Below are positions 1 through 47,677 of a DNA stretch of 64,000 nt, one piece after another. Numbering within the stretch: position 1 is the first letter of the stretch; each line of letters begins with the position of its first letter. Position numbers and translations under genes: made by a program. The stretch covers positions 96,462 through 160,461 of the forward strand of contig JBGAIQ010000009.1 of NCBI GenBank assembly GCA_044225365.1, given 5' to 3'. The DNA is from Planctomycetota bacterium (GTDB lineage: Bacteria; Planctomycetota; B15-G4; JADJEK01). Under the pieces are notes generated by a model that did not search any database, was not told the DNA's origin, and saw only the letters and a list, made by a program, of their open reading frames with translations.

Positions 1-941
1 ACGTACTCGAGCTTCGACTTCGAGGGCGTCGTGACCGTGGCCGTGCGAGCCGGCGTGGAGCGCAGTTCGAAGGCGCCCGCAGCCGTCGTGACGATCGTCG
101 CGCGCGGATCCGGATGTGCGATCGTGATCGGCGCATTGCGCGTCGACGCGATCCCCGCGAGTCGACCGTCGCTTCCGTACGTGAAGTCCATCGCGAAGCT
201 CGCGTCGGACGCCGCGATCCGGACGAGTCGCCCGTTCTCCACCGTGAGGCCATAGCCGAGATCGTCCGTGACCTCGACCCGCGCGCCCGTCGGCAGCGAC
301 TTCCATACCGCGCTCGTATCGGCCCCCTCGATTCGTACGCGACGCATCTCACCGTCGGTCGTCACGACCCCCGTCGAATGCAGCGCCGATCCGAGATTGC
401 GAACGGAGCACGCCTCGAACACCGCCCCCGCCCGAAGATCTTTCAATTCGAACTCGACGACGTGATCCTTGCGGCGAGCACGAGCGAGCGGCGCGCCTTC
501 GCGCGCCCGTTCGATCGTGAGCCACCAATCACCCTCGTTCTCCTCCGCGCGGCCACGGTACACGCCTTCACCGAAAGAGGGCTCGGCGACGAACTCGACG
601 AGGCGCCCATCGTCGGTGAGCAGTCGCGGCGACTCCCCCCATTCGAGGCGTTGACCGAACGAACGCGTCCATCCCGGTCCGAGTCCCTCGGGGTCGGGAG
701 CGTCGGCGGTCGACGTGTCGTTGTAGTAGAGGACGAAGGGAGTGCGCGGAAGCTGCGTGACGAAGATCATGCCCCCCGTCGCGGGTAGGAGGCAGATCCC
801 GGAGTCCTCGATTGGGTAAGCGACGTCGCTGCCGATCGGGAGCCCGACTCCGCGCGAAGCCGAGCCGAGGTGATCGGCGCCGGACGAGGCCGGAACCGTC
901 GAGCACCACAGTGCGAGTATGCAGGTAAGGAGTGACATCAT
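1..941 (-). CDS. YD-repeat/Rhs-family secreted protein, N-terminal part (continues beyond window start)
   Basis: Reverse-strand reading frame from ATG at 941 running open to position 1, so it is not in the supplied track (no stop in window). Translation MMSLLTCILALWCSTVPASSGA... shows a Sec signal peptide. It contains a GLGPGW motif and YD-type repeats (FTYGSDGRLAGIAS, TVENGRLVRIAAS). Composition is not Arg-rich, unlike the competing plus-strand ORF 114..788. Start lies 12 bp after the stop of the upstream Rhs gene. Confidence 0.55.
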   Translation of the reverse strand, partial: MMSLLTCILALWCSTVPASSGADHLGSASRGVGLPIGSDVAYPIEDSGICLLPATGGMIFVTQLPRTPFVLYYNDTSTADAPDPEGLGPGWTRSFGQRLEWGESPRLLTDDGRLVEFVAEPSFGEGVYRGRAEENEGDWWLTIERAREGAPLARARRKDHVVEFELKDLRAGAVFEACSVRNLGSALHSTGVVTTDGEMRRVRIEGADTSAVWKSLPTGARVEVTDDLGYGLTVENGRLVRIAASDASFAMDFTYGSDGRLAGIASTRNAPITIAHPDPRATIVTTAAGAFELRSTPARTATVTTPSKSKLEY

Positions 942-952
942 GGCTCCTCCTC

Positions 953-3900
953 TCAGTGTCCTTGCTTCGTCCGAGTGTGTCGGCACTCGCAAGGGCTCTC
1001 GGCCATGTCGAGGAACCCCGCCAAACGGTCCGCATGTTCCTTGATGTCGTTCATTGCCTTCTGCATCGTCGGATGCTCGATGGATGTCGCAGGAATCGGT
1101 TTACCGTCTCGGCCGGGCGCTGTCGGTCCGGTCAAGGAATAACCATCTCCAATGACGGTGACCCGGGTCAGCTTTGGATCCGATGTATCCGGCACGTCGT
1201 GCGTCGGCTGACTCAGCATTCCATTGTGGACGACATCCGCCCACAGCATGATCGTGACGCTGCCGAACTGGTACTGATTCCAGATCTCGTTGATGATTCG
1301 CTTCCTCTGCAGTTCCCATTTCTCCTTCGCGTCGACATACGCCGCCATCGAATCATGCGTCATGAACGACTTGATTCCAGCGAGCGAGTTGAGCGCGTTT
1401 TGTAGGAAACGCTCCACGAAGGAGTACAAGAGCACGGCGTGGACCATTTCGTGGAAGTAGGCGGACTCCGTGATTCCTTTTCCAACCACTCTCAGCGTCT
1501 TATCAGGAGCCATGACGCTGGAATTCAGGGCTGCGATCTGCACCTTGATGCTGAAATCGGAATCTCCCGAGTGGGAGGTCCTCGCGTGATCCGTCTCGGC
1601 CGGATAGCACGGCGGATCCATCACGGGATTCACGTAGACGTACTTCTCGGAGTAGATGTCCACGCTGTCGAGCTCGGTGACGCCAAAGACCAGGCCTCCC
1701 AGCGCCTCCGAGAAGGCGACGCCAGCCAACTTCGGTCGCTGGATCTCACCGAGCACCCGACCGACCGTGCATAGGCCACTAGGATCGACGAAATCGACCG
1801 GATCGTCGCCGACCCGGCTGTATTCCTTCTGGAGCGAGCTGGCGCGAATCGGATCCGGCTCCACGAACCGGCAATCCTCCGGATCGTACATCCGAGCGCC
1901 GTTCCAGTAGATCCCGTGGTTCGCGTCCCAGCGCATGCCCTGGAACCGGTCGACGTTCCACGTCGCGCCGCTCGTTCCGAGCGAGCCCCCGAAGGGATAG
2001 TACTCGAACCCCGCGGTCGCGAGCGTCGACTCGTCGAGCGTGCGCACCACGCTGCCCGTGATCGGATCGGCGAGCACGACGTGATCGACGCCGGATCGCT
2101 CGGACCAGATCTTCTGATCGATGCCGGTACCGAAATCCTCCTCCTCGAGTACCCAGTTGTTGTAGGAAAGAACGGGCTCGCCGTTGGGATCGAGCGTGAA
2201 GTAACGAATCGTCGAGCCCGTCACGGCACCGAGGATCGAGCCGAACGGATCGCGATAGAACTGGGTGGTGACGGCGCCGGTCGTGAGGGTCGCGATGCGG
2301 CCCCAGGCATCGTAGGTGTAGGTGCGAGTCGAAGCGCCGTTCGATCGCGAGGTCACGCGGCCCGCTGCGTCGTACGCGTACGTCGTCGTTGCGCTACCCT
2401 TCTGTGCCGTGATCAGGCGACTCGCCTGGTCGTAGCCAAAGGTCGTCGTCACGCCGGACTGCGTGGAAGTCGCGATGCGGCCGGCGGCGTCGTAAGTCAG
2501 GCTGGAGGTATACGCATTCGGTCCGGTTCGCTTGCTCGACGCCAGCGCACCGAACGATGTGTAGGTGAACGTCTCGCTGTCGCCCGCCGCGTGATCGATT
2601 TGCGAGACGCGATCTTCGCCATTGTATTTGTAAACGCGGTGCACCAGCGTCGTGCTCGATCGCGCGGCCGAGTAGTCGTTCAGTCGACCGCATCCGTCGA
2701 ATGCGAATCTCTCGTCGACGAGGCCGCGGATCCTTCGAAGCACGATGCGACCGATCGAATCGTACGTAAAGCTCGTCATCGGTTCGGTGATGCTTCCCCG
2801 TACGAGGTCGATCGATGAGATTCGACTCATCGAATCGTAGGAATACGAGAATGCATCGCCGTTCGGAACGACTCGCGCGATGAGGCGCCCTGTCGAATCG
2901 TAGTAATACGAGAACACCTCCCCGAATCCATTGGAGAACGACGTGACCCGCCCCGACGCGTCGTAAGCGTACTGATACCAGGTCGTGCCTTCCTGGATCG
3001 CGGCGAGGCGATCGTGCGCGTCGTACGTGTAACTGCGCGTCGCACCACCGATGCTCGAGCTGGATTGCGTGAGCTTGCCCGAGGCGTCGTAGGCGAAGGA
3101 ATACGTGACACCACCGGGCTCGGTCTGACTCGTGAGTCGACCGTTCGCATCATGCGTGAGGGTGAACGTCTGCGTACCGTGGACGACCGTAGCGAGGTTG
3201 CCGAGCGCGTCGTAGGAATACGACCACGCGAGATCACCGCCGTTCTTCTTGTACGTGAGGCGGCCGAGGGAGTCGTACGCGTACGTCACGGCCGGCGCGC
3301 CGTCGGGGGTCGACGTGAGGGGCTGACCCGCGAGATTGTAGGTATACGAACACCCATACCCCGTCGGATGGACCATGCGCGAAAGTCGGCCGTTCACGTC
3401 GTACGAGTAGGTCGTCGTCAGCACGGTGCTCGTCGACTGGGCAACGGGGTATTTCTTCACGGATACGAGCCGACCGCCCGAATCGTAGGTCTGGTCGATC
3501 CGAATCTCGCTCGAGGTCCCCGGAGCGAGTTTCGATACGGTGAGTCGACCGACGACGTCGTAGGCGAAGGTCGCCACCAGCACGCCGTTCTGCCGGACTT
3601 CCGTGCAGCGCCCCGCCGCATCCCGCGTGTAGGTCGTGGTCACACCGCCGCAGGTCGTGGACACGAGATCCGTGTAGAGGAATTGCGACGTGCTCGGCAT
3701 GGACCCCGAGGCGGCGTGCGACGTCTCGAGCCCTGCGAGGTTGTAGGCGCGTTGCAGTACGACGGCGGGATCGGAGTCGTTCGCGAGGCCATCGCTGTTC
3801 GAATCGATCCAGGGGCCGGTCTCGGTGACGGGGCGGCCCAGCGCATCGCGAGCGACCACGGTCGTCCGACCTCCCGAATCCACCGCGCGCGTGAGTCGGT

Positions 3901-4978
3901 CGGCGGCATCGTAGTCGTAGGTCGCCGTGCCGAGACCGAAGTACGTGTGCGACGTCTCCTGGTTCCGCGCTCCGAACGCGACCGACTCCTGCGGAGTCAT
4001 CGCGCCATCGAAAGTGGTCGCCTGGCGATTCAGCGCGTCGAACTGCGCCGCCTCGAGCACCGACGTCTGGTTCGCGATCATGGTCTGAACGCCGGCGAGC
4101 GAGGCGGCGGGACCATGGCGCGAAACGACGTTGCCCGACGCGTCGTAGCGGTTGCCGATCCACGTGACATTGCTCGACGTCGTGCGGATTCCCTGCGCTT
4201 CGATCCGTCCGGCGGAGTCGTACGACGTGAATTCGCTGCCGAGCGCGGTCGAGACTCCCGGGCGCGTGACTTTGATCACGCGATGCTGCGAATCGTAGTC
4301 GAAGTACGTGACGAGACCGTTGGGATCGGTCTCCGAGATCTTGTCGTGCGTCGCGTTGTAGGACCGGAACGTGATCGCGCCGGCCTCATTGCGGATCTGG
4401 ACCAGGTCGCCGTTCGAGTCGTAAGTGAATTGGCGATATTGACCCGCGGTGATCATCGCCTGAACGTCGGTCTGCGTGAACGCGGGTCCCGCGCTCTGGA
4501 TCACGCGCCCCATCGAATCGAGCGTGTCGAGGGTGATGCCCCCGCGGAAATCGGTCGTCATCGTCCGATTGCCCGCGAGATACGCGAAGGTCCAGGTGTA
4601 CGTCTCGGTGCCATTCGTCGCGGTCCGTGACGCGAGGCGACCCATCGAATCGTAGGTGTACGACTCGGTCAGCGCCCCGCCCTGGCGACTGTGGCTCGTC
4701 ACTCGGTACTGCGCATCCCACGTCCAGTTCTCGATCTGCCCACCGGGATGCGTCGCCTGCTGCAGGAGCGAGTAGCCGCCGGAATACGTGTACGTGTAGT
4801 TGTGCGTCTGAGCGGCGAGTTCCGCCGGATTCGGCACCGGACCGTACACCGGTCCACGGTGCTGGGTCACGTTGCCGAAGGCGTCGTACTGGAAGTCCTC
4901 GTAGAGTGATTGGGCGCTGGCAATTCCCGCCAGCGACATGGCTGCGGCGAAGAGCGAGACGGGGAGACGGAGCGACAT
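953..4978 (-). CDS. Rhs repeat protein (1341 aa): Sec signal peptide, RHS core, C-terminal HExxH metallopeptidase-like polymorphic toxin domain
   Basis: N-terminus MSLRLPVSLFAAAMSLAGIASAQS is signal-like. Dozens of YD repeats (YTYDAHDRL, YAYDASGRV, FAYDGCGRL...). RHS core end signature GARMYDPEDCRFVEPDPI, then the DPSGL autoproteolysis-type motif. The ~350-aa variable tail contains AYFHEMVHAV (HExxH). Confidence 0.9.
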   Translation of the reverse strand: MSLRLPVSLFAAAMSLAGIASAQSLYEDFQYDAFGNVTQHRGPVYGPVPNPAELAAQTHNYTYTYSGGYSLLQQATHPGGQIENWTWDAQYRVTSHSRQGGALTESYTYDSMGRLASRTATNGTETYTWTFAYLAGNRTMTTDFRGGITLDTLDSMGRVIQSAGPAFTQTDVQAMITAGQYRQFTYDSNGDLVQIRNEAGAITFRSYNATHDKISETDPNGLVTYFDYDSQHRVIKVTRPGVSTALGSEFTSYDSAGRIEAQGIRTTSSNVTWIGNRYDASGNVVSRHGPAASLAGVQTMIANQTSVLEAAQFDALNRQATTFDGAMTPQESVAFGARNQETSHTYFGLGTATYDYDAADRLTRAVDSGGRTTVVARDALGRPVTETGPWIDSNSDGLANDSDPAVVLQRAYNLAGLETSHAASGSMPSTSQFLYTDLVSTTCGGVTTTYTRDAAGRCTEVRQNGVLVATFAYDVVGRLTVSKLAPGTSSEIRIDQTYDSGGRLVSVKKYPVAQSTSTVLTTTYSYDVNGRLSRMVHPTGYGCSYTYNLAGQPLTSTPDGAPAVTYAYDSLGRLTYKKNGGDLAWSYSYDALGNLATVVHGTQTFTLTHDANGRLTSQTEPGGVTYSFAYDASGKLTQSSSSIGGATRSYTYDAHDRLAAIQEGTTWYQYAYDASGRVTSFSNGFGEVFSYYYDSTGRLIARVVPNGDAFSYSYDSMSRISSIDLVRGSITEPMTSFTYDSIGRIVLRRIRGLVDERFAFDGCGRLNDYSAARSSTTLVHRVYKYNGEDRVSQIDHAAGDSETFTYTSFGALASSKRTGPNAYTSSLTYDAAGRIATSTQSGVTTTFGYDQASRLITAQKGSATTTYAYDAAGRVTSRSNGASTRTYTYDAWGRIATLTTGAVTTQFYRDPFGSILGAVTGSTIRYFTLDPNGEPVLSYNNWVLEEEDFGTGIDQKIWSERSGVDHVVLADPITGSVVRTLDESTLATAGFEYYPFGGSLGTSGATWNVDRFQGMRWDANHGIYWNGARMYDPEDCRFVEPDPIRASSLQKEYSRVGDDPVDFVDPSGLCTVGRVLGEIQRPKLAGVAFSEALGGLVFGVTELDSVDIYSEKYVYVNPVMDPPCYPAETDHARTSHSGDSDFSIKVQIAALNSSVMAPDKTLRVVGKGITESAYFHEMVHAVLLYSFVERFLQNALNSLAGIKSFMTHDSMAAYVDAKEKWELQRKRIINEIWNQYQFGSVTIMLWADVVHNGMLSQPTHDVPDTSDPKLTRVTVIGDGYSLTGPTAPGRDGKPIPATSIEHPTMQKAMNDIKEHADRLAGFLDMAESPCECRHTRTKQGH

Positions 4979-5096: not shown

Positions 5097-8000
5097 TCAG
5101 GAGCGAAGAACGCGATCGGCCTCGCGCACGACGGCTGCGTTGAACAGATCGCTGGTCAGGAACGCCTCGCGCCGCTGGGCGTCCTCGATTCCCGTACTGC
5201 GCTCGAGCACGAGGTCGCGTGCCCGCACGAGGAACTCGCGAGCCTCGTCCTCACGATCGATCGCCTTCAGGCAGCGATAGTGGATGAACGACAGCTCGGC
5301 CTGGCGCTTCCTCGCGGCCTGGTGCGTCTCCAGGAACTTCATGCCCTTCTTGCTGACGGCGAGGGCGAACTTGGACTTGCCCTGCGCGAGGTAGGCGACG
5401 GCGAGCGCGGCGTAGGCGTAGGCCTCCTGTCGCGCAAGCTCGTACTTCTGCGCGATCGCCACGCCCGAGGCGGCATACGTCGCGGCGACGGCGGGGTCGC
5501 GCTCCGGATTCTGATTCGCGATGAAGAGGAGGGCGAGGGCGACGTGCGTGTACACCTCGAACGGCGCATCCGAGGTCATCTTGAACAGATCGAGCGCGCG
5601 TTCGAGGCGGGCCCTTGCTTCGGCATGGCGACGCGCTCGCATCGCGAGTTCGCCAGAGACGTACAGCGCGCGAGCCTTCAACGCCTGATCGGAGTTGGCC
5701 TCGGCGATCGTGAGCGCCGCGTCCGCGGACTTCTCGGCGCGTTCGAGGTCGCCGAGCTCGCGATAGGTCCTTGCGAGCTGAAAGAACGCGCGGCCCCGAC
5801 CGCGTTGATCCTCGAGTCGCTCGAAGAGCGCGAGGGCCTGCTTCTGCGTCTCGAGGGCGAGCTCGAGACGATCCGTCGCGAGATAGAGCTGGCCGAAGAT
5901 GAGGAAGCCGTAGGCGCGTCCCAGCTCGTCCCCCGCCGCAGCGGCGAGTTCGTCGGCACGCTTCAATTCGTCGTCATAATCGGTCTGACCGAGCGTCTCG
6001 AGCACGGCGGCCTCGACGCGGAGCGAGCGCGCCTCGAGCGCGAGATCACCCGCACGTCGCGCCGCCTCGCGCGAACGCTCGCAATGCTGCAGCGCCGCGA
6101 ACACGCGGCCGGTGGACGAGTCGTACGCAGCGAGTTCGACCTCGACCTGCGCGATGCGTCGATCGTCGTTGGCCGTGAGCGCTACGCGGGCGGCGGAGCG
6201 CAGCAATTCGCCCTGCCGCGCGCGCTGTCCCAGATGACCGTAGACCGAAGCCGCGCCGAGGAAGAGGGCCACGCGATCCGAGGCGACGATCGTGGCATCG
6301 TCGTCGGAAACCTGCGACAGGTGGTCGAGCGCCTTGTCGGCGAGCCGCTGCGCTCGCTCGTGGAGGTTGCGGTCCTCGCAGAAGTCCACGGCACCGATCA
6401 GATACCTGGCGGCGCGCGAGTGCGCCTCCGCGAAGGAGAAGTGGATGCCGGCTTCGTAGTTCGCGCGCGTCGCGGCGTGCGGGTCGGTGGACGACCGCGC
6501 GTGGATCTGCGCGACCGTCAGGTGATATTCGCGACGCAGGGCGGGATCGATCCCGAGGTACACCCGTTCACGCAGCAAGTGATGATCGAAGCGGTAGGCG
6601 TCGTCGAACGATCGAACGAGGTGATAGCGCTGGGTCAGTCGCGAGAGAACCTCGGAGGCCTTGAGGAGGTCGAGCCCGAGTCCCTCGATGACCGGCTCGG
6701 GTTTGAATCGCGCGCCGAACACCGACGCGAATTCGAGGAAGCGCTTCGCTTCGGCATCGATGTCCTCGAGCCTTCGCGCGAGCAGGTCGAGCACCGATTT
6801 CGGCAACGGCAGGCGCTTCAGCTCGGCGGGCTTGATCGAGCGCAGCTTGCCGCGCCGTTCCAGGTCGTCGATCAGCGCGAACAGGAAGCCGGGATTGCCT
6901 TCGCTCGCTTCGTGGAGGCGCTTGCCGAGAGATTTCAGGAGCGCCGGCGGAACGCCGACGTCCCGCAGCACGGAGCGGACGGCGGTGTCGTCGAGCCGCT
7001 CGAGCGTGACGTGGAGCGCTTCCTTCAGCTCGAACAGCTTCTTGAAGAACGGCGCCGACGGCGGCTCGCCCGGCATCGTCTCGGCGAGTGCGCTCTCGCG
7101 GGCCGTGAGCACGATGGCGATCGGGAACACCGCGAGCGTCGAGGCGAGTGCGAGCAAGGCGCGGAGCGAACCGCGATCGGCCCACTGGATCTCCTCGATC
7201 ACGAGGAAGATCGGCGAGCGCACCGACAGCGTGCGCAGGACCTCCGCGTACAGCGCGGGGACGGCTTCCGGCGGCAGTTGCTTCGCTGCCGAAGAACCGG
7301 CGAGCGCGCTCGCGCCCGGCGCATTCGTCCCGCCGGATGCGACGCCCGCGCCGCCTTCACCGAGAACGAGGGAAGCGAAAGCGTCGGCGAAGACGCGGCG
7401 CTCGGGCAGGTTCTCGCGCAACTTCTCGGCGAGCACGCGCGTGCGATCGGCGCGCGGGACCGCGTCGACGCCGAGGGCCATCAGCAGCGCCTCGTTCAGT
7501 GCGTAGTACGGCGTCGCTGCCGCTTGATCGAGGAAGCGCGAGACGAGGACCTGCGCGCCGAGCGGCTCGATCTCCTCGGACTCGAGTGCGCTATCGATGA
7601 GGCGCGATTTGCCGATCCCGGTCTCGCCGGTGACGACGACGACCCGTCCGCTCCGCGCGACGGCGGCCGTGCGCAATGCGTCGACGAGCGCGCCGCGCGC
7701 GGCGTCCCGTCCGTAGACCCGAGTCGCACGACGCACGCGCAATCGTCGCCGCGAACGCGACAGGTGCGCCTCCATGGCTTCGCCCTCGACGTAGGCCTTC
7801 CACCAGTCCGATTCCTCGCGTTCCTCGAGGATGCGAAGGAGGCGCGATGCCGGCTGGAGACGCCGCGCCGGGTCTTTCTCGAGCGCCTGCGCGACCACCC
7901 GCTCGAAGAAGTACGAAACGTCGGGCGCGAACGCCGAGACGGGACGCGGGACGAGCCTCGTCTGATTCGCCATCGTCGACGGCAGATCGGGACCGTGGAA

Positions 8001-8664
8001 CGGATTGAATCCCGTGAGGCACTCGTAGGCGGTGACGCCGAGCGAGTAGAGGTCGGTCGCCTTGCCGATCGGCCCGCTCGCGATCTGCTCGGGCGACGAA
8101 TACGCGGCGCTGCCGACGAACGTGCCGGGCAGCGAGATCTCCGTCCCCGGCTCCACGAGCCGCGAGAGTCCGAGATCGACGATGTGGAGATGGTCCTCGG
8201 CGTCGAGGAACAGGTTCCCGGGTTTGATGTCCCGGTGCAGGATGTCGTGCTCGTGGAGCGCCGCGAGCGCCGCGACGCCCTGTCGATAGACGTGGAACGC
8301 TCGGCTCTCGCTCATCCTCCCGTCGTCGTCGAGGACCTTCGAGAGCGTGCGCCCTCGCAGATACTCCATGACGATGAAGTGGAGCGTCTCGCCGCCCACC
8401 TTCTCGCTGCCGACGTCGTAGGTCGCGACCACGTTCTCGTGCTTGATCGCGAGGCCGACCCCGGCTTCGCGTTTGAATCGCCGGAGGATGTCCTCGTCGG
8501 CCGCGAGGTGCGGATGCAGGATCTTGAGCGCGACCTCGACGCCCACGCGCAGACCCTTCTTCGCCTTCACCACCTCGGCGAGGAAGACCGTTCCCATGCC
8601 GCCCGCGCCAAGGCGCTTGACGACGCGGTAGTTCTTGATGGTCTTGCCCTCGAGATCGTTCACG
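5097..8664 (-). CDS. Ser/Thr protein kinase fused to AAA/STAND-type NTPase and TPR repeats
   Basis: Kinase motifs LGAGGMGTVFLAEV, VALKIL, HRDIKPGNLFL, DLGLS, SPEQ. Walker A VVVVTGETGIGKSRL follows, then long TPR-like helical repeats. The track ORF starts at 8762, which is only 13 bp from the divergent cysS start. An in-frame GTG at 8664 (VNDLEGKTIKNYRVV, just before the G-loop) is the more likely start; the true start is uncertain between 8664 and 8762. Confidence 0.85.
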
Positions 8665-8775
8665 CACGTACTTTCGTTGTCAGGATCGAAGCTGGCGATT
8701 ATAGTCCGTGGCAGCGTAGGGCAAGCGTAAGCGATTGCGAGCGCGCTTTTAACGCACAGCAAACGGCAAAACCCA

Positions 8776-27032: not shown

Positions 27033-27742
27033 CAGGGCTGCTTGCTCTTGTTCCGCGTCCGGTAGTACTGCAACAGGAGCTCTCGATAGCGGTCCGGGAA
27101 CTCGTTCTGCGAGAGCTTCTGGAACATCTCCTGGACCTTCGGCGGCAGGACGCCCCAGCGGCCGGCGACGTTCTCGCGCTGGTACTTCTCCTTCTCCGAC
27201 GGCGGATCGACGCCATCCGCCTTCTGCTGATCCGGCTTGCTCTTGTCCGGCCCACCATCCTTCGGCTGGCCCGATTTCTCCTCGGGCTTCTGCTTGCCCT
27301 CGCCCTTGTCCTTCTCGCCTTGCTGCTTCAGCTTGTCGACCTCGGGATCCTTGCCCCGCTCGTCCTGCTGTTTCTGCTGGGGAGAGTTCTTGGGATCGGG
27401 CTCGCCCGACCCCTTGCCGCCGCTGTTGGACTGCCGCTTCGCCATGCGGACGAGTTCCTCGATGTCCGTCACGGCCTGCGACTGCTTGGATTGGATGTCC
27501 TTCAGCAGCTTGTCGAGATCGGCTTTCACCTGCTCGATCCTCGCGGCGGCATCCTTGGGCGCATCCTTCGCAGCCTGCAACAGCAGCTCGTCGATCTCGC
27601 CCATCTCCTTACGGATCTTGGCTTGGAGCTCCTTCGCCTTGATCTCGTCGGCTTGTCCCCCGTCCTGCGCGACCGCGCGCTGCGCGCTCACGCCCGTGAG
27701 GATCGCCGCGACGCAGAGGAATCGCTGGATGCGCGTGTTCAT
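27032..27742 (-). CDS. exported K/Q/E-rich low-complexity coiled-coil protein (236 aa)
   Basis: Signal peptide MNTRIQRFLCVAAILTGVSAQRAVAQ, then a highly charged, likely disordered region (KQQGEKDKGEGKQKPEEKSGQPKDGG...). Start overlaps the stop of the upstream gene (ATGA-type). Confidence 0.6.
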   Translation of the reverse strand: MNTRIQRFLCVAAILTGVSAQRAVAQDGGQADEIKAKELQAKIRKEMGEIDELLLQAAKDAPKDAAARIEQVKADLDKLLKDIQSKQSQAVTDIEELVRMAKRQSNSGGKGSGEPDPKNSPQQKQQDERGKDPEVDKLKQQGEKDKGEGKQKPEEKSGQPKDGGPDKSKPDQQKADGVDPPSEKEKYQRENVAGRWGVLPPKVQEMFQKLSQNEFPDRYRELLLQYYRTRNKSKQP

Positions 27743-30525
27743 TTGCCACCCGGGCCCTTCTCGTCCTTCACTTCGACCGGCGGCCCCTGCGAGTCGTCGA
27801 TCATGCCGCGGAAGAGTTTCGTGATCTCGGAGTGCTGTAGTCCGAGGCGGGTCAGGCGGTCACGCGAAATCGCGTCGAGACCACCCTCCGCATTGGCGCC
27901 CTGGAGCCGCATGAAGACGTCGAGACGCTTCATCATGCTCTCCTCCATTCGCTTCAACATGAGCAACTCGGCGACGGGCGGGATCAAGGGCTGCTTCTGT
28001 TGCTGCTGCGGCGAATTCCCGTTCTGGCCGTCCGGCGGCTGGCCCTCCTCGCCCTCCTTCGGCTTGAGCTTCGCCTGCTTGCGGCGCTCGACTTCTTCAT
28101 CGAGGGTCGCGAGAAGCGTGTCGTAGCGATCGAGGATGTCGCGCGCGATCGACTGCGTGAAGTCGTCGGTGCGGTAGGGAGCGGTCCCGAGCAGTTCGGT
28201 CACTCGATCGAAATCGCCGTCGTTCTGCTCGAGCGCGAACGTGAAGACCGTCGCTCCATCCTCGCGCAGCTTCGACACGACCTCCTGATTCTGCACCTTC
28301 AGTTCTCGCGACTTCTGCGCGAGCTTCTTCGACGTATTCTGTCCGACTCGCGACAGCTTGCCCTTGCTCTGGCGCTCGAGTTCGAGCTCCTCGGTCTTGG
28401 CTACGACCTCACCCTGGCCCGTACGAAGGAGGGTCAACTGCTCCTTCACCTTGAAGAGCAACTCCTCCTGGCGAAGGTTCTGGTACTTGTCCTTCTCCTG
28501 CTTCAGTTCCTGCTCGGCCTTCTTCAAGAACTTCTCGGCTTCTTCCTGGCGCGGGGTTGCTTCCTCGCCCTGCTCCTTCTTGAGGCTCGATGCCGCCTGA
28601 TCCATCTTCGATGCGGCGGCGGAGAGCGACTGCTCGCGTTCGGGCTTCTTCTCGTCGCGGATACGATCCATCAGCTCTTTCAGCTTCTTCTCGAGCTCCC
28701 GCTGACGGCTCTCGAGGTCGTCGTACTTCTGCTGCTGATCCGCGGCCGAAGGGGAGTCCTTCGCGGACTGCTCGGCTTCCGACTGCTGCTGGTCGAGCTC
28801 CTGCGAGGCCTTCTCGAGTTGTTCACCCGCCTCGCTCTGGCTCTTCGCTGCTTTCTCCTGCTGGCCGCTGCGCATCGATTGCGCCGCCTGCTGCATCGAC
28901 TGCGCCGCCGACTCCACGGCCTTCGAGGCTCCCGACGGCGAATCCTTCTTCATGGCCGCGTCGAGGCGGGAGAGCGTCTTCGCGAGAGCCTCGGCCTGCT
29001 GGCTCGCGTACTCCTGCTTCGCGGCGAGGGAGTCGCTCCGTTCCTGCGCAGCCTTCTCGGCACCGTCGATCGCGTTGCGCGCCTCCTTCATCTTCTCGAG
29101 CGCATCGCGTTGCGCCGCGGCCGCGCCTTCGAGGTCGGGCTTCTCCATCTCGGAACCGGCTTCGTTCGCCGCTTGCGCGCTCTGCTCGAGCGCCGCCGCC
29201 GCGTCGCTCGCTCGCTTCTGCGCCGCTTGGTTTCGTTCGGCGGCCTGCGGATCGCCCGCACTCTTCGAATCGCGTGAGTCCTGCGTCGGCAACTTCTCCA
29301 CCCGGGAAGCAGCTTCTGCGAGCTTCTTCGCTTCGTCACCGAGTTCGCGTTGCTGGTCGGCCGCCTTCGCGTCGGTCGCCGACTTCGAGAGCGCCTTGTC
29401 GAGCTGCGCCTTCGCGGCATCGACGTTCTCGTTCTCGGCGTTCGCGAGCTGCGCCGCCGTGGACGCGTCGCCGTTCTTCTCGGCGTCGCGCGCCGCCTTC
29501 ATCCGCTCCGAAGCACTCGCGAGTGCTTTGGCGAGGGCTTCGCGGGCGGTTGCGATCTCGGCGGCGTTCGCCGGATCCTTCGCGCCGTTCTCGCCGTTCT
29601 TTGCGTCGGCCGCGGTCGCCTCCTGTGACAACGCGTCCTTCGCCGCCGCGAGTTGTTCGGCAACCTTCTTCATCGCGTCGGCGTCGCCCGCGGCCTTCGA
29701 GTCGTCAGATGCGTCGGCCTTGGACTTCGGGGAGCCGTCGGCGGAGGCTGCCTCGGCCTTCTTGGCAAGGTCCTTCGCGAGAGCCTTCTGGGCTTCGATC
29801 GCGGCCTGTGCAGCGAGGAATCCGGGAGCCGCCCGCTCGAGCGAGTTCTCGGTCGCTGCGAGCGCGGCATTCTGCTTCGCGATCAGGTTCTCCAACTGGT
29901 GCTTCAGAGCGGCGAGTGCCGAGTCCTTCGACTGCGACTCGCTCGTGTTCTCCTTCGCCAGCTTCTGTTCGTTCTCCTTCAGGTCCTTCAACTGACTCTT
30001 CGCCTGCTCGGCGAGAGCCTTCGGATTCGTCGCCAGAACGGTCGTCTCGTTCGTCAGCTTCTGCTGCTCGCTCCGCACCTGCGCAATGTCGCGGACCGCT
30101 TGTTCGAGCTTCTTGGCTTCGGCGTCGAGCGAATCGAAGTCCGTTCGATCGAGGAGGATCGCGTACACGGACTCGAGATCCTTGAGCAGGTCCTCCTGCT
30201 CCTTCACCGAGGCGAACTCCTGGCGGTCGAGACTCGACCCGATCTTCTCGATCGTTCGGGTCAGCTCGCGCTTCTTGATCTCGGCGATCGCATTGTCGAG
30301 CAGGTCGGCGCTGTGCTGCTTTCCCTCCGCCCGCAGCCGCTTCGACAGCGACTCCATGTTCTTCTTCGTCGACTCGATGCGGCTCTTGAGGTTCTGCTGC
30401 TCCTGCGAGATGCGTTTGACGTCGGTCGCGGCGTCGGTCTCATCGCTCGCCCACGAGCGTGCGAACGGCAGTGCACAGAGCGACAGCGAGAGGAGACACG
30501 GAGCGAAGTGGAATCGGCTTCTCAT
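27739..30525 (-). CDS. exported giant coiled-coil protein (~928 aa)
   Basis: Start MRSRFHFAPCLLSLSLCALPFARSWA (signal peptide) at 30525. The remainder is almost entirely A/K/E/Q/S-rich heptad-like helix (SMC/apolipoprotein-like composition). The track ORF start at 30669 adds 48 junk residues. Confidence 0.7.
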   Translation of the reverse strand: MRSRFHFAPCLLSLSLCALPFARSWASDETDAATDVKRISQEQQNLKSRIESTKKNMESLSKRLRAEGKQHSADLLDNAIAEIKKRELTRTIEKIGSSLDRQEFASVKEQEDLLKDLESVYAILLDRTDFDSLDAEAKKLEQAVRDIAQVRSEQQKLTNETTVLATNPKALAEQAKSQLKDLKENEQKLAKENTSESQSKDSALAALKHQLENLIAKQNAALAATENSLERAAPGFLAAQAAIEAQKALAKDLAKKAEAASADGSPKSKADASDDSKAAGDADAMKKVAEQLAAAKDALSQEATAADAKNGENGAKDPANAAEIATAREALAKALASASERMKAARDAEKNGDASTAAQLANAENENVDAAKAQLDKALSKSATDAKAADQQRELGDEAKKLAEAASRVEKLPTQDSRDSKSAGDPQAAERNQAAQKRASDAAAALEQSAQAANEAGSEMEKPDLEGAAAAQRDALEKMKEARNAIDGAEKAAQERSDSLAAKQEYASQQAEALAKTLSRLDAAMKKDSPSGASKAVESAAQSMQQAAQSMRSGQQEKAAKSQSEAGEQLEKASQELDQQQSEAEQSAKDSPSAADQQQKYDDLESRQRELEKKLKELMDRIRDEKKPEREQSLSAAASKMDQAASSLKKEQGEEATPRQEEAEKFLKKAEQELKQEKDKYQNLRQEELLFKVKEQLTLLRTGQGEVVAKTEELELERQSKGKLSRVGQNTSKKLAQKSRELKVQNQEVVSKLREDGATVFTFALEQNDGDFDRVTELLGTAPYRTDDFTQSIARDILDRYDTLLATLDEEVERRKQAKLKPKEGEEGQPPDGQNGNSPQQQQKQPLIPPVAELLMLKRMEESMMKRLDVFMRLQGANAEGGLDAISRDRLTRLGLQHSEITKLFRGMIDDSQGPPVEVKDEKGPGGK

Positions 30526-30569
30526 GGTGTGCCTTACGACCGATTGCGCGCGGCGGGGTTCCATCGTTG

Positions 30570-32906
30570 TCATTCTCTCTTCAGCGACTGCTTGGTGCGC
30601 TGATTGAGCGACCGTTGATCCTCGACCAGATTGCGAAACGTCGCAACGATCTCTTGAAAACTCTCCCACTCATCGAGGCGGGCGATCAAGGCGTCGAGCC
30701 GTTCGAGCGCCCGTTTCTCCTCCTCGAGGGCTTGCCGCAAGGCCAAGGGCCGCTGCGCAGGATCGACGGCGAGCCGTGCATCGGACAGCGCTTTCGCGGC
30801 CGCCGGCGAATGCAGCTCGGCGACGTCGATCACGCAATGGATCATCTCGAAGATGCGACCGAGGATCTCGAGTCGACCGTACGCACTCGCGGCGTTCGCT
30901 TCGACGAGCGGTCGCCACAGCTTCGGATCGAACCCGTCCAATTGGGAGCTGCCGCGCTTCTTCTCGAGCATCACCGCGATCAATCCTTCGACGCCCGAAC
31001 TCGTGTCGAGCCGATTGAAGAGGTACTCCTCGAAGATCTCCGCGAACTCTCGGCACTGCTTCAGCGACCGTGCGGTCACCTGGTTCTGGCCCACCTCGAG
31101 CGTGGCGACGTCATCGGCCGTCGCGCCGGTCACCCCTTCGGCCTGGTCGAACTCCTTCAGGATCACTTCGAGTCGCTCGATCTTCTCCTGCTGGAGAGCG
31201 CGCAAGGAGCCGACCTCCTCCTTGGTGCGAGTCTGACGCTCCGCCAGGAGTCGCTGTTTCTCGCCGGGCGCGACGATGTCGACGCGCCGCTCCTCGATCG
31301 CCGTCTCGTTGCCGCCGGTCGAGGGCTTGCCGTCCTTGCCAAGGACGATGCCGTCGAAATTGTCCTTGGCCGCGACGCGATAGACGAGCGACTCCCCCGC
31401 CGCCATCGCGCGCGGCCCGCCTTCGTGCTCGAACACCTTCTGCTTGAGGTCGAGGTGCTCGTAGACGAGGACGCGACGCGATTCGTCCGGACCCTTGCCG
31501 ATCGGGAAGTCGATCTTCAGCGGGGTCGCACCGCCAAACGGCTTCATCTCGATCGCGAGGCTCGTGAGTCCGTAATCGTCGTCGGCGGCGATCCGCAACG
31601 GAACGATGCCGTTCGGTGTCACGTCGACGTCGGCGCGGCCGGGCTCGAGGACTCGCACGGTCGGACCGCGATCCTTGACGGCGAGGACCGAGTAGGTCGG
31701 GGGTTCGAGATTCTTGAACCCGATGTCCGAGACCAGCTCGATGGAATAGGCGCACGACTGCGTGATGTCGAACGACGCTCGCAGCTTCCGCGAATTCGAA
31801 TCGGCGACGAGTAGAAGCGGCAGTGCCGCGATCCCGCTGTCGAAGACGAGGCGACCGGCGGCCACCGCATCGGCGGTCTGGACGTCGATCGTGACGTGTG
31901 TCCCGACGAGTCCTTCCACGTCGCCTCGTGGTTCGACCCGCGGTCCGAGACCGGTGTAGGCCGGGAACTGGAGCTGCGACGTGACGCTCGCGACCGCGGG
32001 CGGCGTGAAGATCTCGACTTCGACTTCGCGGCCGCCGCCATCATCGTCGCCGCCGACCGGTCGGAACGTGAAGGGCGCGCGCACCGATCGGAACCGGCCC
32101 GCCCACTCACCATTGCCCGTCGACGACAGGGCGATCTTCGAATCCCCGCTCTCGCGCGACTCGGTCCGGACCTCGACGAGCTCGGGGTTCTCGCCGTTCG
32201 CCGTCACTGCGACCGGCAGACTCGCGCCACGAGCGATGCGGACGCGAATCGGGCGCTTCTCGTTCGAGGAGTCCTTCGCGTCGTATTCCACGACGTAGTG
32301 CGTGCCGTGCTCGGGGAACTTCACCGCGAGCATCGTGCGTTGCGGCCATCGTGCGCTCCCGCCGAGTAGGCGGCGGAAGAAGACGTCGGCGAGCGACGAC
32401 TGCGTCGCCACGAACGTGATGACGCCGAGGACGAGCACGGCCGCCGCCGCGCCGAGGCGCTGCAGGTGCCGATACTCGAAGATCGTCGAAAGGGGCAGGG
32501 TGGCCCGGATCGCCGAAGTCTCGCGCCGCAAGTCGGCGACGAGCTCGGGCGACACGTTGCGCTGCGGATCGATCGCCTCGCCCTCGAGTTCGAGGACCGC
32601 GAGCAGACGGCCGTCGAACTGCGGGAAGCGCCGCTCGATCGCACACGCGACATCGCGCTCGGTCGGCCGCTTCTTCAGGGGGTAGACGATGCCGCGATAT
32701 ACCTGCACGGCGAGGCCGGCGACGACGACGAGCAGCAGCACGATGCGAACCGGCGCGGGCAGGGCGAGCGACCGATCGAGGACGTAGAGGGCGGCGAGCC
32801 CGCAGCATACGAAGGCGACGACGCGCGCGATTCCATACAGCAGCGCGAGCTTGAGCCAGCGGCCCGCGAGACGCGAGAATTCGGCGCGCAGTTCGTTCAG
32901 GTCCAT
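30570..32906 (-). CDS. membrane-anchored large protein (778 aa; N-terminal double TM, large extracytoplasmic domain, C-terminal coiled-coil)
   Basis: TM helices LKLALLYGIARVVAFVCCGLAALYVL and IVLLLVVVAGLAVQVY near the N-terminus, a third after the FEYRHLQR segment. Long beta-rich middle. Helical E/R/L-rich C-terminus. No catalytic motif recognised. Confidence 0.7.
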   Translation of the reverse strand: MDLNELRAEFSRLAGRWLKLALLYGIARVVAFVCCGLAALYVLDRSLALPAPVRIVLLLVVVAGLAVQVYRGIVYPLKKRPTERDVACAIERRFPQFDGRLLAVLELEGEAIDPQRNVSPELVADLRRETSAIRATLPLSTIFEYRHLQRLGAAAAVLVLGVITFVATQSSLADVFFRRLLGGSARWPQRTMLAVKFPEHGTHYVVEYDAKDSSNEKRPIRVRIARGASLPVAVTANGENPELVEVRTESRESGDSKIALSSTGNGEWAGRFRSVRAPFTFRPVGGDDDGGGREVEVEIFTPPAVASVTSQLQFPAYTGLGPRVEPRGDVEGLVGTHVTIDVQTADAVAAGRLVFDSGIAALPLLLVADSNSRKLRASFDITQSCAYSIELVSDIGFKNLEPPTYSVLAVKDRGPTVRVLEPGRADVDVTPNGIVPLRIAADDDYGLTSLAIEMKPFGGATPLKIDFPIGKGPDESRRVLVYEHLDLKQKVFEHEGGPRAMAAGESLVYRVAAKDNFDGIVLGKDGKPSTGGNETAIEERRVDIVAPGEKQRLLAERQTRTKEEVGSLRALQQEKIERLEVILKEFDQAEGVTGATADDVATLEVGQNQVTARSLKQCREFAEIFEEYLFNRLDTSSGVEGLIAVMLEKKRGSSQLDGFDPKLWRPLVEANAASAYGRLEILGRIFEMIHCVIDVAELHSPAAAKALSDARLAVDPAQRPLALRQALEEEKRALERLDALIARLDEWESFQEIVATFRNLVEDQRSLNQRTKQSLKRE

Positions 32907-32940: not shown

Positions 32941-34149
32941 TCAGCGCTGCAGGATCGGCAAGTACCGGTAAGGGACCTGCAGGATGATCGACGCTACGGC
33001 GGTCGAGAAGGCGTCGCCGGGACCCTCCTTGTTGCGCCAGAAACCGTCGCGCGTCTGCACGTTCAACAGGTCCGCCTTGATGCTTTTATAGTACCGACTC
33101 CACCACGGGTCGCCCGCGACAAAGAACGCCTGCACCGCGTAGTAGTGGCCGTACCAGAAGAAGAAGTGTTCGTAGCGACTCCGCATCTGGTCGTACTCGC
33201 GCTCGAGGAGATCGAGCGACTCGCGAAGGGTTTCGTTCGAGTACACGCCTGCGTTGTAGAGCGATGCGATCCCCGCCGCCGTGAGCGCGAACGAACTGCG
33301 CGTGTTGTCCTGCTTCTGATACTTGAACGAGCCGCGCTTCAAGAAGTAGTAGTCGTTCGAGTCGCCGTATCCCGCGTAGGGGTCGTCCTCCGGCTGATAG
33401 GAGTCGATGACGTACTTCACGGCGTTGTCGATCGTGGTCTTCGGGACCTTGATCCCGATGTTGCGAGCCGAGCGCAGCGCCATGATCTGGCAGACCGTGA
33501 TCGACATGTCGGACTCGATCGCGAACGGCTCGTAGCGCCACGAACCGTAGCTGTTCTGCGATTCGACGATGAGGTCGACGGCGCGCTGCAGTTTCTCGCG
33601 CAGGTCGTTGCGATGCGTCATCCCGACGACTTCGGACAGGAAGAGCGTCGCGAACGCGTGGCTGTACATGCGCGTTCCGTCGCGCGAGATGTAACCGTGC
33701 TCGTCGACCGAGGTGAGGATGAAGTCGATCGCCTTCGTCAGCGTCTCGCCGTAGCGGCCGCGACCCGGCAGATTGCCGCCCGCGAGGTACGCCATGCCCG
33801 CGAGCGCCGTCACCCCGACGTGATGGACCTTCTCGTGCTCGACCATGTAACTCTGATTCAGCTTGAAGCCGACATCCCCGGTCCACGAGCCGTCGGCGTT
33901 CTGCTGCTTCTGGAGCCAGCGCAGCGCCTTGTCGACCGCGGTCGCCACCGCGGGATCGGGATCATCGGCACCCACGTTCGAATCGTCGCTCGCAGTGACG
34001 GGGACGGGTGCGATGGGCGACACCCCGAACGACACGAGCGGCGCGAGGAGGACGAAGCCCACGCCGAGTCCGAGCGACCGAAACATTCTCATGGATTCGA
34101 TTCCTTCAAGCGTTCGCGCGGGGTCCATCGACTTTCCTTTGCCGCTCAC
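32941..34149 (-). CDS. exported prenyltransferase/squalene-oxidase-repeat protein, paralog A
   Basis: Same architecture as 25830..27032 (LRWLQKQQNADGSW, SQNSYGSWRY, C-terminal YLPILQR). Start overlaps the stop of the 1544-aa gene (ATGA). A signal-like segment FRSLGLGVGFVLLAPLVSFG follows a possible internal start. Confidence 0.75.
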   Translation of the reverse strand: MSGKGKSMDPARTLEGIESMRMFRSLGLGVGFVLLAPLVSFGVSPIAPVPVTASDDSNVGADDPDPAVATAVDKALRWLQKQQNADGSWTGDVGFKLNQSYMVEHEKVHHVGVTALAGMAYLAGGNLPGRGRYGETLTKAIDFILTSVDEHGYISRDGTRMYSHAFATLFLSEVVGMTHRNDLREKLQRAVDLIVESQNSYGSWRYEPFAIESDMSITVCQIMALRSARNIGIKVPKTTIDNAVKYVIDSYQPEDDPYAGYGDSNDYYFLKRGSFKYQKQDNTRSSFALTAAGIASLYNAGVYSNETLRESLDLLEREYDQMRSRYEHFFFWYGHYYAVQAFFVAGDPWWSRYYKSIKADLLNVQTRDGFWRNKEGPGDAFSTAVASIILQVPYRYLPILQR

Positions 34150-38951: not shown

Positions 38952-40907
38952 TCAGTGCGGGTGGGAGACCTGGGAATCGTCGCTCGGACCGCGCGCCAGC
39001 TTCTCGAGCCGCAGGCGATAGGTACGAAGGATCTGCTCGCGTGACAGCAGCCCAATCAATTTCCAGCGATCGCCATCGGGAACCACGATCGGTACCTCGT
39101 CGCACTCCTCCTCGGAGAGCTTCTGGAGGGCCGTGAGCAGCGGGTCGTCCGGGCGGACGATCGGGTAGGCATCGCTCATCATCTCCGAGACCAGGACGAG
39201 TCGGTGGACGCTGGTGTCGAGCAAGAGGTCGCGAACGTCCTCGATCGTGACGATGCCGAGCACGAATCCGGCTTCGTCGAGCACCGGAAAGCACTGCTGC
39301 CGCGTCCGTCGCAGCATCTGGACCATGTCGGCGATCGTCTGACCCGGCTTCAGTGTCGCAACCTTCGAATGTTGAGCCGTGGCGTTCTCGACGGTGAGTG
39401 GCGCGAGCACGTCGACGCTGTACGAACCGAGGTGTGCCGGCGACTCGAAGCGCGATCCAACCTGGGCCGTGTAGACCGACGCGCGACCGGTGAACACGTA
39501 GGCGAGCGCGCAGACCAGCACGAGCGGCAGGAGCAGTCCGTACGAGCCGGTGATCTCGCACACCATGACGAGTCCCGCGATCGGCACCTTGGTGATACCG
39601 GCGAACACACCGCTCATGCCGACCAGGACGTAGGCCCCCGGATCGGTGACGACGTCGGGGAACAGGAGATGCGCGAGCTGTCCGTAGCCCGCACCCACCA
39701 TCGCGCCGATGTAGAACGCAGGGCCGAACACGCCTTCACCCCCGCGCGTCGCGAAGGTGATGCCCGTCGCGAGCGATTTGGCGAGCGCGAGTCCGAGCAG
39801 GAAGAGCACGCCGCGCATTCCGGGGCCCGCGAGGCTGCCATCGATCGCTTGCTGCACCCAGCCGTAGCCGGTGCCCCACACCTCTGGAACCGCGAGAACG
39901 AGCACGCCGAGGAGGAGCCCGCCGATCGCCGGCCGAGCGAACGACGGCAGCGTGAAGCGCGCGAAGATCTTGTCGAAGACGCCCACGCGCAGCGTTTTCA
40001 GCGCCATGACGTAGACGATGCCGGCGAGCGCGCAAACGAGTCCGAAGACAGCGTAGATCGGCAGCTCGAGCGGCGACATCAGTTTGAACGCCGTCGCATG
40101 GAAGACCGGTGTCCAGCCGTAGACACAACCGAAGGTCGCGTACGCCGAGAGCGACCCGATGATCGCGGGTACGAACGCCGTGTACTCGAACTCCGGATTG
40201 CGATACGGCGACTCGATGGCGAAGATCGCGCCCGAGAGCGGTGCGCGGAAGATCGCCGCGAACCCGGCCGCCGCGCCGACGAGTAGCGAGATCCGCCGAT
40301 CCGCAGAGCGCAGCTTGAACGTATCGGCGATCTTCGAACCGATCGCCGCTCCGAGTCCGACCGCCGGCCCTTCGCGACCGACCGACCCACCGGAGCCGAT
40401 GACGACGAGCGAACTGAGCGCTCGCAGGACTGGATCCTTCAATCCGAATTTCCCGCGTCGCTGATGGAACGCATCGAGCACGCCGTCGGTTCCGCCGCGG
40501 GTGGGATCGGGCCGTGCGATCGTGAAGAGCAGGCCCGCGAGGAGTCCACCGAGGCCGGGCACCAGGACGAGCATCCAGCGAATCGGTTCCGCGACCGCGC
40601 TGCCCGTGGGCTCGGGCGGATCGCCGCCGGGCACCGGCGGATGGAACGACGCGAGGCGATGCGTGAAGAACGCGACCGCGAGCCGCAGCGCCTCGAAGAA
40701 CACGATCGACACCGCGCCCGCGAGGACACCGATCAGCACCGCGAGGAAGAACCACTTCGCCGCGTGGCGGATGTCGGGCAGCGACGTGAACGAGGCCGGA
40801 CGCGACGCGTCCCGGCCGACAGGATGGAACGGCGCGATACGAGTCGTCGCGCTCGCCGCCGGATCGGGCCGTTTCAGATCAGATTGAATCTCTTGCGTAG
40901 GATCCAC
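38952..40907 (-). CDS. ClC-family chloride channel / H+-Cl- antiporter with C-terminal CBS pair
   Basis: Selectivity-filter motifs GSGGSVGREGP and GAIFAIE/GxFxP-type segments. ~10 TM helices. C-terminal CBS pair (CFPVLDEAGFVLGIVTIEDV, VPIVVPDGDRWKLIGLLSREQIL). GTG start at 40907 proposed (ORF track start 41192 is Arg-rich junk). Confidence 0.85.
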   Translation of the reverse strand: MDPTQEIQSDLKRPDPAASATTRIAPFHPVGRDASRPASFTSLPDIRHAAKWFFLAVLIGVLAGAVSIVFFEALRLAVAFFTHRLASFHPPVPGGDPPEPTGSAVAEPIRWMLVLVPGLGGLLAGLLFTIARPDPTRGGTDGVLDAFHQRRGKFGLKDPVLRALSSLVVIGSGGSVGREGPAVGLGAAIGSKIADTFKLRSADRRISLLVGAAAGFAAIFRAPLSGAIFAIESPYRNPEFEYTAFVPAIIGSLSAYATFGCVYGWTPVFHATAFKLMSPLELPIYAVFGLVCALAGIVYVMALKTLRVGVFDKIFARFTLPSFARPAIGGLLLGVLVLAVPEVWGTGYGWVQQAIDGSLAGPGMRGVLFLLGLALAKSLATGITFATRGGEGVFGPAFYIGAMVGAGYGQLAHLLFPDVVTDPGAYVLVGMSGVFAGITKVPIAGLVMVCEITGSYGLLLPLVLVCALAYVFTGRASVYTAQVGSRFESPAHLGSYSVDVLAPLTVENATAQHSKVATLKPGQTIADMVQMLRRTRQQCFPVLDEAGFVLGIVTIEDVRDLLLDTSVHRLVLVSEMMSDAYPIVRPDDPLLTALQKLSEEECDEVPIVVPDGDRWKLIGLLSREQILRTYRLRLEKLARGPSDDSQVSHPH

Positions 40908-47562: not shown

Positions 47563-47677
47563 TGCGAAACTCCAGGTACGGCCGTGATTCCGCGGGACGT
47601 GAGGCCCCGCAGATCCAACCATCTAGGATACGATCGGCAAACGAGAGGCGAGAGACGAAATCGTTCGTGAGATCTCG

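Follow-up and report, generated by a model that had tools for sequence, protein, structure and literature searches.

To our knowledge, every bacterial Rhs cocoon of solved structure is sealed at its N-terminal end by a plug that belongs to the same chain, and a two-protein shell is known from Tc toxins only. The Tc toxin cargo, of about 30 kDa, is released by autoproteolysis. TcB/TcC provides the precedent for a two-chain cocoon (10.1101/590430). In Tse5, RhsA, and Rhs1, DUF6531 forms the N-terminal plug that closes the Rhs barrel; the Tse5 barrel occupies residues 125-1091, about 967 amino acids (aa) without the plugs (PMC10684867). WapA combines a Sec leader, an Rhs barrel, autocleavage at a TDPSG (DPxG) motif, an encapsulated C-terminal toxin, and a DUF6531 lid in cis (PMC12704120). 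Here we describe a pair of genes at positions 1-4978 (minus strand) of a 64-kb stretch of contig JBGAIQ010000009.1, hereafter the window: gene 1, which encodes a 1341-aa Rhs protein, and gene 2, which encodes a YD-repeat protein directly downstream. We read the pair as one conserved and rare two-gene operon rather than as tandem Rhs toxin genes.

Sec is a recognised export class of RHS toxins, and Zhang et al. (2012) described Sec-dependent ("T2SS class") members with HExxH tails, Tox-MPTase1-5, for which no immunity family is listed (PMC3482391). The Salmonella Dublin Rhs-M91 effector SED_RS06335, which acts in the periplasm, is paired with the immunity protein SED_RS06340 (PMC13556075). The combination of Sec-class export, an RHS toxin with an HExxH tail, and the lack of a recognised immunity protein has thus been catalogued before (PMC3482391). 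New at this locus are the tail, one of only three members of an orphan family; the apparent lack of a cis plug; and the conserved plug-like YD partner. Three loci were compared: the window; L001, whose Rhs protein is P0001; and L002, whose Rhs protein is P0003. Their sequences were arranged in alignments of the three tails (A1), the three gene-2 proteins (A2), and known plugs (A3), with a further gene-2 query for hhalign (A5).

Gene 1 (953-4978, minus strand; ATG start, stop codon at 953-955) encodes a true Rhs protein in which the motif for autoproteolysis is intact. Delimited from the list of open reading frames (ORFs), Pfam, and NCBIfam, it matches Pfam RHS_repeat in 16 stretches (6.9e-74), NCBIfam YD_repeat_2x (2e-54), and solved Rhs shells (1.7e-39 to 1e-24). 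P0001 (1332 aa) is a full-length orthologue, with 50% identity over 1334 aa; gene 1 itself has no exact entry in the assembly index. Behind the leader lie the YD-repeat barrel, defined by RHS_repeat (aa 24-992, 969 aa; 2003-4909, minus strand), and the Rhs-associated core, which comprises the C-terminal plug and aspartyl autoprotease (aa 993-1069; 1772-2002, minus strand). The core matches TIGR03696, Rhs_assc_core, at 6e-15 and 55.5 bits, against a cut-off of 32.5. Its motifs are YDPEDCRF (aa 1031-1038), PDPI (aa 1041-1044), and DPSGL (aa 1065-1069). D1042 of PDPI and D1065 of DPSGL are 23 residues apart, and both Asp motifs are kept in P0001 and P0003. The catalytic aspartates of Tse5, D1141 and D1164, are likewise 23 residues apart (PMC10684867). 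By analogy with Tse5, RhsA, and Rhs1, autocleavage is predicted between L1069 and C1070.

These results bear out the initial annotation, which had described a 1341-aa Rhs protein with a DPSGL boundary: the ORF, RHS_repeat, TIGR03696, and the quoted motifs are all present, and the DPSGL Asp is conserved in the orthologues, as that annotation proposed to check. Its estimate of about 350 aa for the tail was too long, as 272 aa follow DPSGL (956-1771, minus strand).

The gene 1 signal peptide (aa 1-23; 4910-4978, minus strand), identified from a reading of the sequence and a hydropathy profile, is MSLRLPVSLFAAAMSLAGIASA, with cleavage expected before QS. Its n-region is basic, about 16 aa form the hydrophobic core, and the site is of A-x-A type; the equivalents are GASGAWG/QS in L001 and ASSAVA/QQ in L002. 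This classical leader, conserved in the orthologues, suggests Sec export. The annotation had assigned classical Sec leaders to both genes, which is right for gene 1 only: gene 2 begins with MMSLLTCILALWCSTVPASSG, which is hydrophobic and has no basic n-region. Its inference that the route is not a type VI secretion system (T6SS) agrees with the absence of PAAR, prePAAR, VgrG-binding, or other T6SS features from gene 1 in Pfam and NCBIfam, and of T6SS genes from the 64-kb window. Gene 1 resembles the T6SS Rhs cocoons (Tse5, Pseudomonas protegens RhsA, Rhs1/Tre23, and RhsP) in its YD barrel and two-Asp core, with cargo encapsulation and self-cleavage predicted, but differs from them in its Sec leader and in lacking a PAAR, prePAAR, or VgrG-binding N-terminus. 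With the WapA-type toxins of Gram-positive bacteria it shares the Sec leader, Rhs barrel, DPxG motif, and C-terminal toxin. WapA, however, has a cis DUF6531 lid, wall-binding domains, and a small immunity gene, whereas gene 1 has no wall-anchor domain detectable with Pfam, and the plug-like motif here lies on a separate protein.

YD-type hairpins open the gene 1 barrel directly behind the leader. Pfam detects RHS_repeat only, and no DUF6531 plug (E<=1), in the N-terminal 226-251 aa of all three orthologues, and an hhalign comparison of the gene 1 N-termini with the plug alignment likewise reveals none (E=0.26). The span from leader to core, 969 aa, is close to that of the plug-free Tse5 barrel. 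Conservation is highest over the first ~130 aa of the protein, at 67% and 55% identity as against 54% and 36% overall; this region could be a surface for docking a partner, or an unrecognised plug. The region (about aa 24-130; 4589-4909, minus strand) includes a segment that is not of YD type, RGPVYGPVPNPAELA.

The C-terminal cargo, or toxin domain (aa 1070-1341), lacks recognisable relatives in the standard collections. Pfam and NCBIfam gave no match, nor did PDB sequences searched with a single sequence and with a profile, and none of the three tails reached E<=10 in Pfam. A word index of 5.8 billion proteins, queried with the tail or with A1, yielded nothing; nor did relatives emerge from metagenome and viral collections scanned with the tail alignment, or from tblastn against plasmids. 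In phmmer, run exhaustively over 1.84 billion cluster representatives, seven matches appeared, two of them true: P0001 (E=7.9e-40) and P0003 (735 aa, E=3.1e-12), each from a single Logan metagenome assembly. The others were rejected as spurious: P0005 is an unrelated repeat protein, and P0002, P0004, P0006, and P0007 are repetitive proteins that match 25-40 tail residues many times over. These four (700-1400 aa) align at tail residues ~155-196 (NQYQFGSVTIMLWADVVH against NQFGTVNLVVWADLCH), with as many as 18 occurrences per protein. They resemble translated repeats, metagenomic or eukaryotic, and the match was judged a chance similarity amplified by repetition. On sequence grounds, then, the tail is a previously undescribed orphan family of three members.

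The three tails share 46 invariant columns in A1. Among them is the HExxH that had prompted the proposal of a protease effector: HEMVH in the window (aa 1176-1180, within AYFHEMVHAV; 1439-1453, minus strand), HEDAH and HENGH in the others, with H107, E108, and H111 invariant and both x positions variable. By composition, the expected number of such motifs is 0.02 in the tail and about 0.5 over all likely window genes, where two are seen. Given this chance expectation, the bare motif is weak evidence; its weight comes from invariance in the three homologues. The second window copy, MVEHEKVHHV, lies in a prenyltransferase- or squalene-cyclase-like protein (32941-34149, minus strand) and illustrates how the bare motif arises by chance.

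Further invariant stretches of the tail are C-T-x-G (C-T-[VI]-G) at the start of the fragment that cleavage would release; N-P...P-C-Y-P..T-D-H; T-H at 139; H182; and C-E-C-x-H, which is CECRH in the window (aa 1330-1334; 977-991, minus strand). The invariant columns include C1, C55, H62, H139, H182, C261, E262, C263, and H265 (C1070, C1124, H1131, H1208, and H1251, for example, in gene 1). All four cysteines of the window tail are invariant, and Cys1070 (1769-1771, minus strand) directly follows the predicted autocleavage site. The Cys and His residues may form a second metal site, disulfides, or a latency element resembling a cysteine switch. Because both HExxH and this Cys/His-rich set are invariant in three tails, a metal-dependent enzyme is supported: the tail is likely a zinc-dependent hydrolase, and the chances that it is a zincin peptidase are about even. 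The Tox-MPTase1-5 and HopH1- or M91-like Sec RHS toxins have in common with gene 1 a signal peptide, RHS repeats, and a C-terminal HExxH domain. The window tail differs from theirs in having no Pfam match, in its larger size, and in being rich in Cys and His; moreover, it is conserved among orthologues and followed by a gene for a YD-repeat, plug-like partner.

That partner gene, gene 2, begins at an ATG at 941 and leaves the window at its left edge after 313 codons (1-941, minus strand). The visible part contains GLGPGW and FTYGSDGRL, and was taken by the annotation for a second Rhs gene in tandem with the first. Its orthologues, however, are complete at 370 aa in L001 and 472 aa in L002; their C-termini align in A2, and neither has an Rhs-associated core or tail. 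Window gene 2 is 40% identical to the 370-aa protein (E=4e-48) and collinear with both orthologues through its last visible residue. Because the complete orthologues have aligned ends, gene 2 almost certainly encodes a short protein that would end about 60 codons past the window edge, and not a second full Rhs toxin. A gene-2 profile search recovered only the two proteins already known, so that the family has three members, and scans of genome and metagenome contigs with gene 2 found no relatives.

The leader of the gene-2 protein is textbook in L002 only; in the window and L001 it is weaker and has no basic residue. Assignment as a lipoprotein was rejected, as a canonical lipobox is missing and conservation does not extend to the Cys residues. 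The L002 partner (L002:4638-6056) has an extra segment of about 90 aa, without a Pfam match, between its signal peptide and the plug-like motif.

Gene 2 is built from Rhs parts. A YD-type hairpin region, which includes FTYGSDGRL, starts at about aa 215 (1-299, minus strand); the A2 profile matches solved Rhs shells in their YD regions (2.4e-5 to 6e-4), and Pfam RHS_repeat matches the orthologues at 2.3e-8 (L001) and 7.2e-13 (L002). Upstream of these hairpins lies a plug-like, DUF6531-like segment (aa 48-117; 591-800, minus strand). Pfam DUF6531 matches it at E=0.0014 and 19.4 bits (cut-off 24.1), in the window copy. In hhalign, gene 2 aligns with A3 (the plugs of Escherichia coli RhsA, Tse5, RhsA-Pp, and two Salmonella-type cores) at E=0.0054 with A2 as query, and at E=0.0016 over 67 collinear columns with A5; two control alignments in the same comparison gave E=0.26 and 0.37. 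The gene-2 invariants G-[LF]-G-x-G-W and D-G coincide with those of known DUF6531 plugs (G-x-G-x-x-W and D-G), and the plug-like motif is the most densely invariant stretch of gene 2. The evidence for a DUF6531-like plug is suggestive only; with this plug and the small number of YD hairpins behind it, gene 2 resembles the N-terminal third of an ordinary Rhs protein. In contrast to the T6SS Rhs effectors, the N-terminal plug is undetectable in cis, and a similar motif is present in the downstream gene.

The two genes travel together. The stop codon of the Rhs gene and the start of gene 2 are separated by 11 nucleotides (nt) in the window, not the 12 bp reported initially, and by 16 nt in L001 and 5 nt in L002. 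The window spacer (942-952, minus strand) carries the ribosome-binding site GAGGAGGAG, and both this site and its spacing are conserved. The gene-2 ORFs are intact and collinear at 27-42% identity in three lineages, and their GC content at third codon positions (GC3), 0.80-0.93, matches that of real genes. In tblastx comparison, the Rhs gene and gene 2 are the sole genes common to the three loci, so the two are read as one module. Identities of shell (54/36%), cargo (40/33%), and gene 2 (42/32%) fall in parallel, which indicates inheritance as one unit.

The same tail is kept in all three orthologues, at 33-40% identity, and no polymorphism is seen among these three sequences, which include no closer strains. 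In this small three-locus sample the Rhs protein appears inherited whole, unlike the classical polymorphic Rhs toxins. The GC content of the tail falls to 0.54-0.59 in the window, but a recently swapped cassette was rejected, as tail GC3 equals shell GC3 in L001 and L002 and the tail has been inherited with the shell. In L002, the Rhs orthologue (559-4632) is broken by a single in-frame TAG (L002:2383-2385, between TVARDT and GRHSTF), and P0003 represents its distal part. Similarity continues in the same frame on both sides; the TAG may be a nonsense mutation, an assembly error, or a read-through site.

These observations suggest a model, which is our best overall explanation although we would put it at a little below an even chance: a Sec-exported Rhs cocoon with a zinc hydrolase cargo, capped in trans by the product of gene 2. 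Gene 1 would be exported by Sec and fold into a YD-repeat cocoon, whose Rhs-associated core would cut the chain after DPSGL and thereby free a 272-aa cargo that begins with the invariant Cys. The cargo would act as a zinc-dependent hydrolase, most probably a zincin-like peptidase. Gene 2, translationally coupled to gene 1, would encode an exported protein of about 370 aa, which would dock on the N-terminal aperture of the gene-1 barrel, sealing it and perhaps enlarging it around its large cargo (272 aa, compared with 149 aa in Tse5; PMC10684867). The result would be a cocoon of two polypeptides, in principle like TcB and TcC. Docking is proposed because gene 1 opens with bare hairpins and no detectable cis plug, while gene 2 is plug-like; the strong conservation of the first 130 aa is what an interface at the start of the barrel would show. 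Of all the steps, docking is the least certain. It is hard to see how a plug with a few hairpins would by itself form a closed container, but it could extend and cap the open edge of another barrel. The model includes no separate immunity gene, which would fit Sec export of an unfolded and then encapsulated toxin directed against non-kin targets.

The proposed likeness to the Tc BC cocoon would be one of principle, a YD/RHS shell made from two polypeptides around a self-released cargo. Differences are evident: gene 1, gene 2, and their neighbours carry no SpvB, TcdB_mid, or beta-propeller domain recognised by Pfam; the window, L001, and L002 contain no TcA-like gene; and the order of the genes is reversed, with a smaller chain of only about 370 aa. 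A fuller version of the model is somewhat unlikely, in our estimate. It holds that the gene-2 plug and hairpins both seal the barrel and enlarge its cavity, as a minimal split Sec-exported device independent of Tc toxins; that the cargo founds a new Cys/His-rich zinc hydrolase toxin family; and that the source is a deep-branching Planctomycetota-like lineage.

Several results weigh against these proposals. The gene-1 barrel is already of full length, so that the extra gene-2 hairpins are not obviously needed; the cargo chain is encoded first, the reverse of tcB-tcC; and the gene-2 leaders of the window and L001 lack a basic n-region. The plug similarity is sub-threshold, with a Pfam match in one of the three members, and two less sensitive tests gave E=0.9 (a small plug hidden Markov model [HMM]) and nothing at all (a PDB profile search of the plug segment). 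As for the cargo, no sequence or fold relationship links the tail to a peptidase: the Pfam models for Tox-MPTase, M91, and other zincins match none of the three tails at E<=10, and fold searches with the low-confidence models returned nothing. On the predicted helix that follows HExxH (141-167), neither Glu nor Asp is invariant; among nearby invariant residues, His139 alone, 28 residues past the second HExxH His, could serve as a third ligand. HEMVH passes what we take to be the PROSITE zincin pattern, PS00142, while HEDAH and HENGH, with a polar residue or Gly after the Glu, presumably fail it.

These last points are also the case for a tail that is not a peptidase, and whose HExxH and Cys/His motifs would instead form either the metal site of a different enzyme (another hydrolase, or a toxin that modifies nucleic acids or lipids) or a scaffold of zinc or disulfides with a purely structural role. 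Neither HMM nor fold comparison shows a zincin relationship; a conserved acidic third ligand is missing, and two homologues have a polar residue or Gly inside the motif; and nine invariant Cys/His positions, including C-E-C-x-H, lie outside HExxH. On the other hand, zincin toxins recur as C-terminal cargo of Sec-class RHS proteins (PMC3482391), and the predicted arrangement is that of a zincin. The two AlphaFold models of the tail have pLDDT values of only 35 and 42, but in one a long helix (102-131) starts with HExxH behind beta strands (66-68 and 73-79). We consider a non-peptidase tail unlikely, if less so than the other alternatives. The initial proposal of a protease effector is thus sustained in part: its HExxH passes the test of conservation, in three of three homologues, while comparison with metallopeptidase and toxin families, Tox-MPTase and M91 among them, found neither a Pfam or PDB match nor a fold, and a zincin peptidase is not established.

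The alternatives for gene 2 turn on what a short YD protein does beside a toxin gene. The annotation held the usual immunity gene to be absent from its expected position, but that slot is occupied in all three loci by a conserved, tightly coupled short protein, which serves either as a partner in the cocoon or as the missing immunity protein. As cognate immunity protein, gene 2 would be an exported inhibitor of the metal-dependent toxin in the producer's periplasm. Its conserved position and coupling, its constant association with the cargo, a divergence that tracks that of the cargo, and its hydrophobic N-terminus would all suit this role, and the periplasmic Salmonella Dublin Rhs-M91 toxin, with a downstream, periplasm-facing immunity protein, offers a precedent (PMC13556075). 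Like the gene-1 product, SED_RS06335 combines Rhs repeats with an HExxH peptidase tail, and the gene downstream encodes a partner that is exported or in the membrane; unlike that product, it is delivered by PAAR and T6SS and has a recognisable M91 domain, whereas the locus described here has no M91 match and a YD-repeat partner. Against this role, gene 2 is, at 370-472 aa, far larger than a typical immunity protein, matches no immunity family in Pfam, and is composed of Rhs parts, with YD hairpins at 2e-8 and 7e-13 and its densest invariance in the plug-like motif; nor is the cargo polymorphic among orthologues, as a toxin-immunity arms race would lead one to expect. We regard an immunity function as quite unlikely. 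Out-of-frame ORFs that overlap the genes (568-1035, minus strand, for example) were also considered as a hidden immunity gene and rejected: they are Arg-rich artefacts, and tblastx conservation follows the gene frames only.

Two tandem full-length Rhs toxins, the first a zincin effector with no immunity gene and aimed at non-self targets such as eukaryotes, would agree with the conserved HExxH, with the catalogued Sec-class RHS Tox-MPTase1-5 that lack immunity proteins, and with the tendency of such toxins to be host-directed (PMC3482391). The window edge cuts gene 2, and its end is not directly seen; yet its collinearity with orthologues that stop at 370 and 472 aa, with aligned C-termini and neither core nor tail, makes this arrangement very improbable. 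A decaying, functionless 5' remnant of a full-length Rhs gene would account for likeness to the first third of an Rhs protein only, and the TAG in the L002 Rhs gene shows that lesions occur at such loci. Against decay stand intact ORFs with matching ends in three diverged lineages, gene-like GC3, and a conserved ribosome-binding site and spacing, so that a remnant is very unlikely.

The surroundings are those of an ordinary chromosome. Other window genes encode cysteinyl-tRNA synthetase (CysRS), translation initiation factor IF-2, NusA, ThiG, a Bat/MoxR/VWA operon, and enolase; T6SS, type VII secretion system, and Tc genes are absent from the 64 kb, and scans for Rfam families, tRNAs, promoters, and terminators added nothing. 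Immediately upstream of gene 1 (5097-8762, minus strand) is a gene for a 1221-aa protein with Ser/Thr kinase, AAA_16, and TPR domains; neither L001 nor L002 keeps this neighbour beside the Rhs genes. A pair of large DUF4175 proteins, together with a BatA/VWA/DUF58/MoxR (AAA_3) operon (27739-32906 and 40874-47622, both minus strand), fits a Planctomycetota-like or Planctomycetes-Verrucomicrobia-Chlamydiae-like genome. The CysRS is at best 48% identical to those of species representatives, with top matches among metagenome-assembled genomes of Planctomycetota; given this low identity, the source lineage is poorly sampled, and it is probably diderm. In a diderm, Sec alone would bring the two proteins only to the periplasm.

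If the split-cocoon model is right, Sec can export the parts of an Rhs container separately, with assembly to follow, which would bear on how Rhs toxins that depend on Sec fold, how they are kept closed, and how their cargo is set free. If the partner is instead a large immunity protein built of YD repeats, that too would be unprecedented. The tail itself is a candidate new enzyme: its family of toxin domains is new, conserves HExxH, and lacks detectable relatives beyond its three members.

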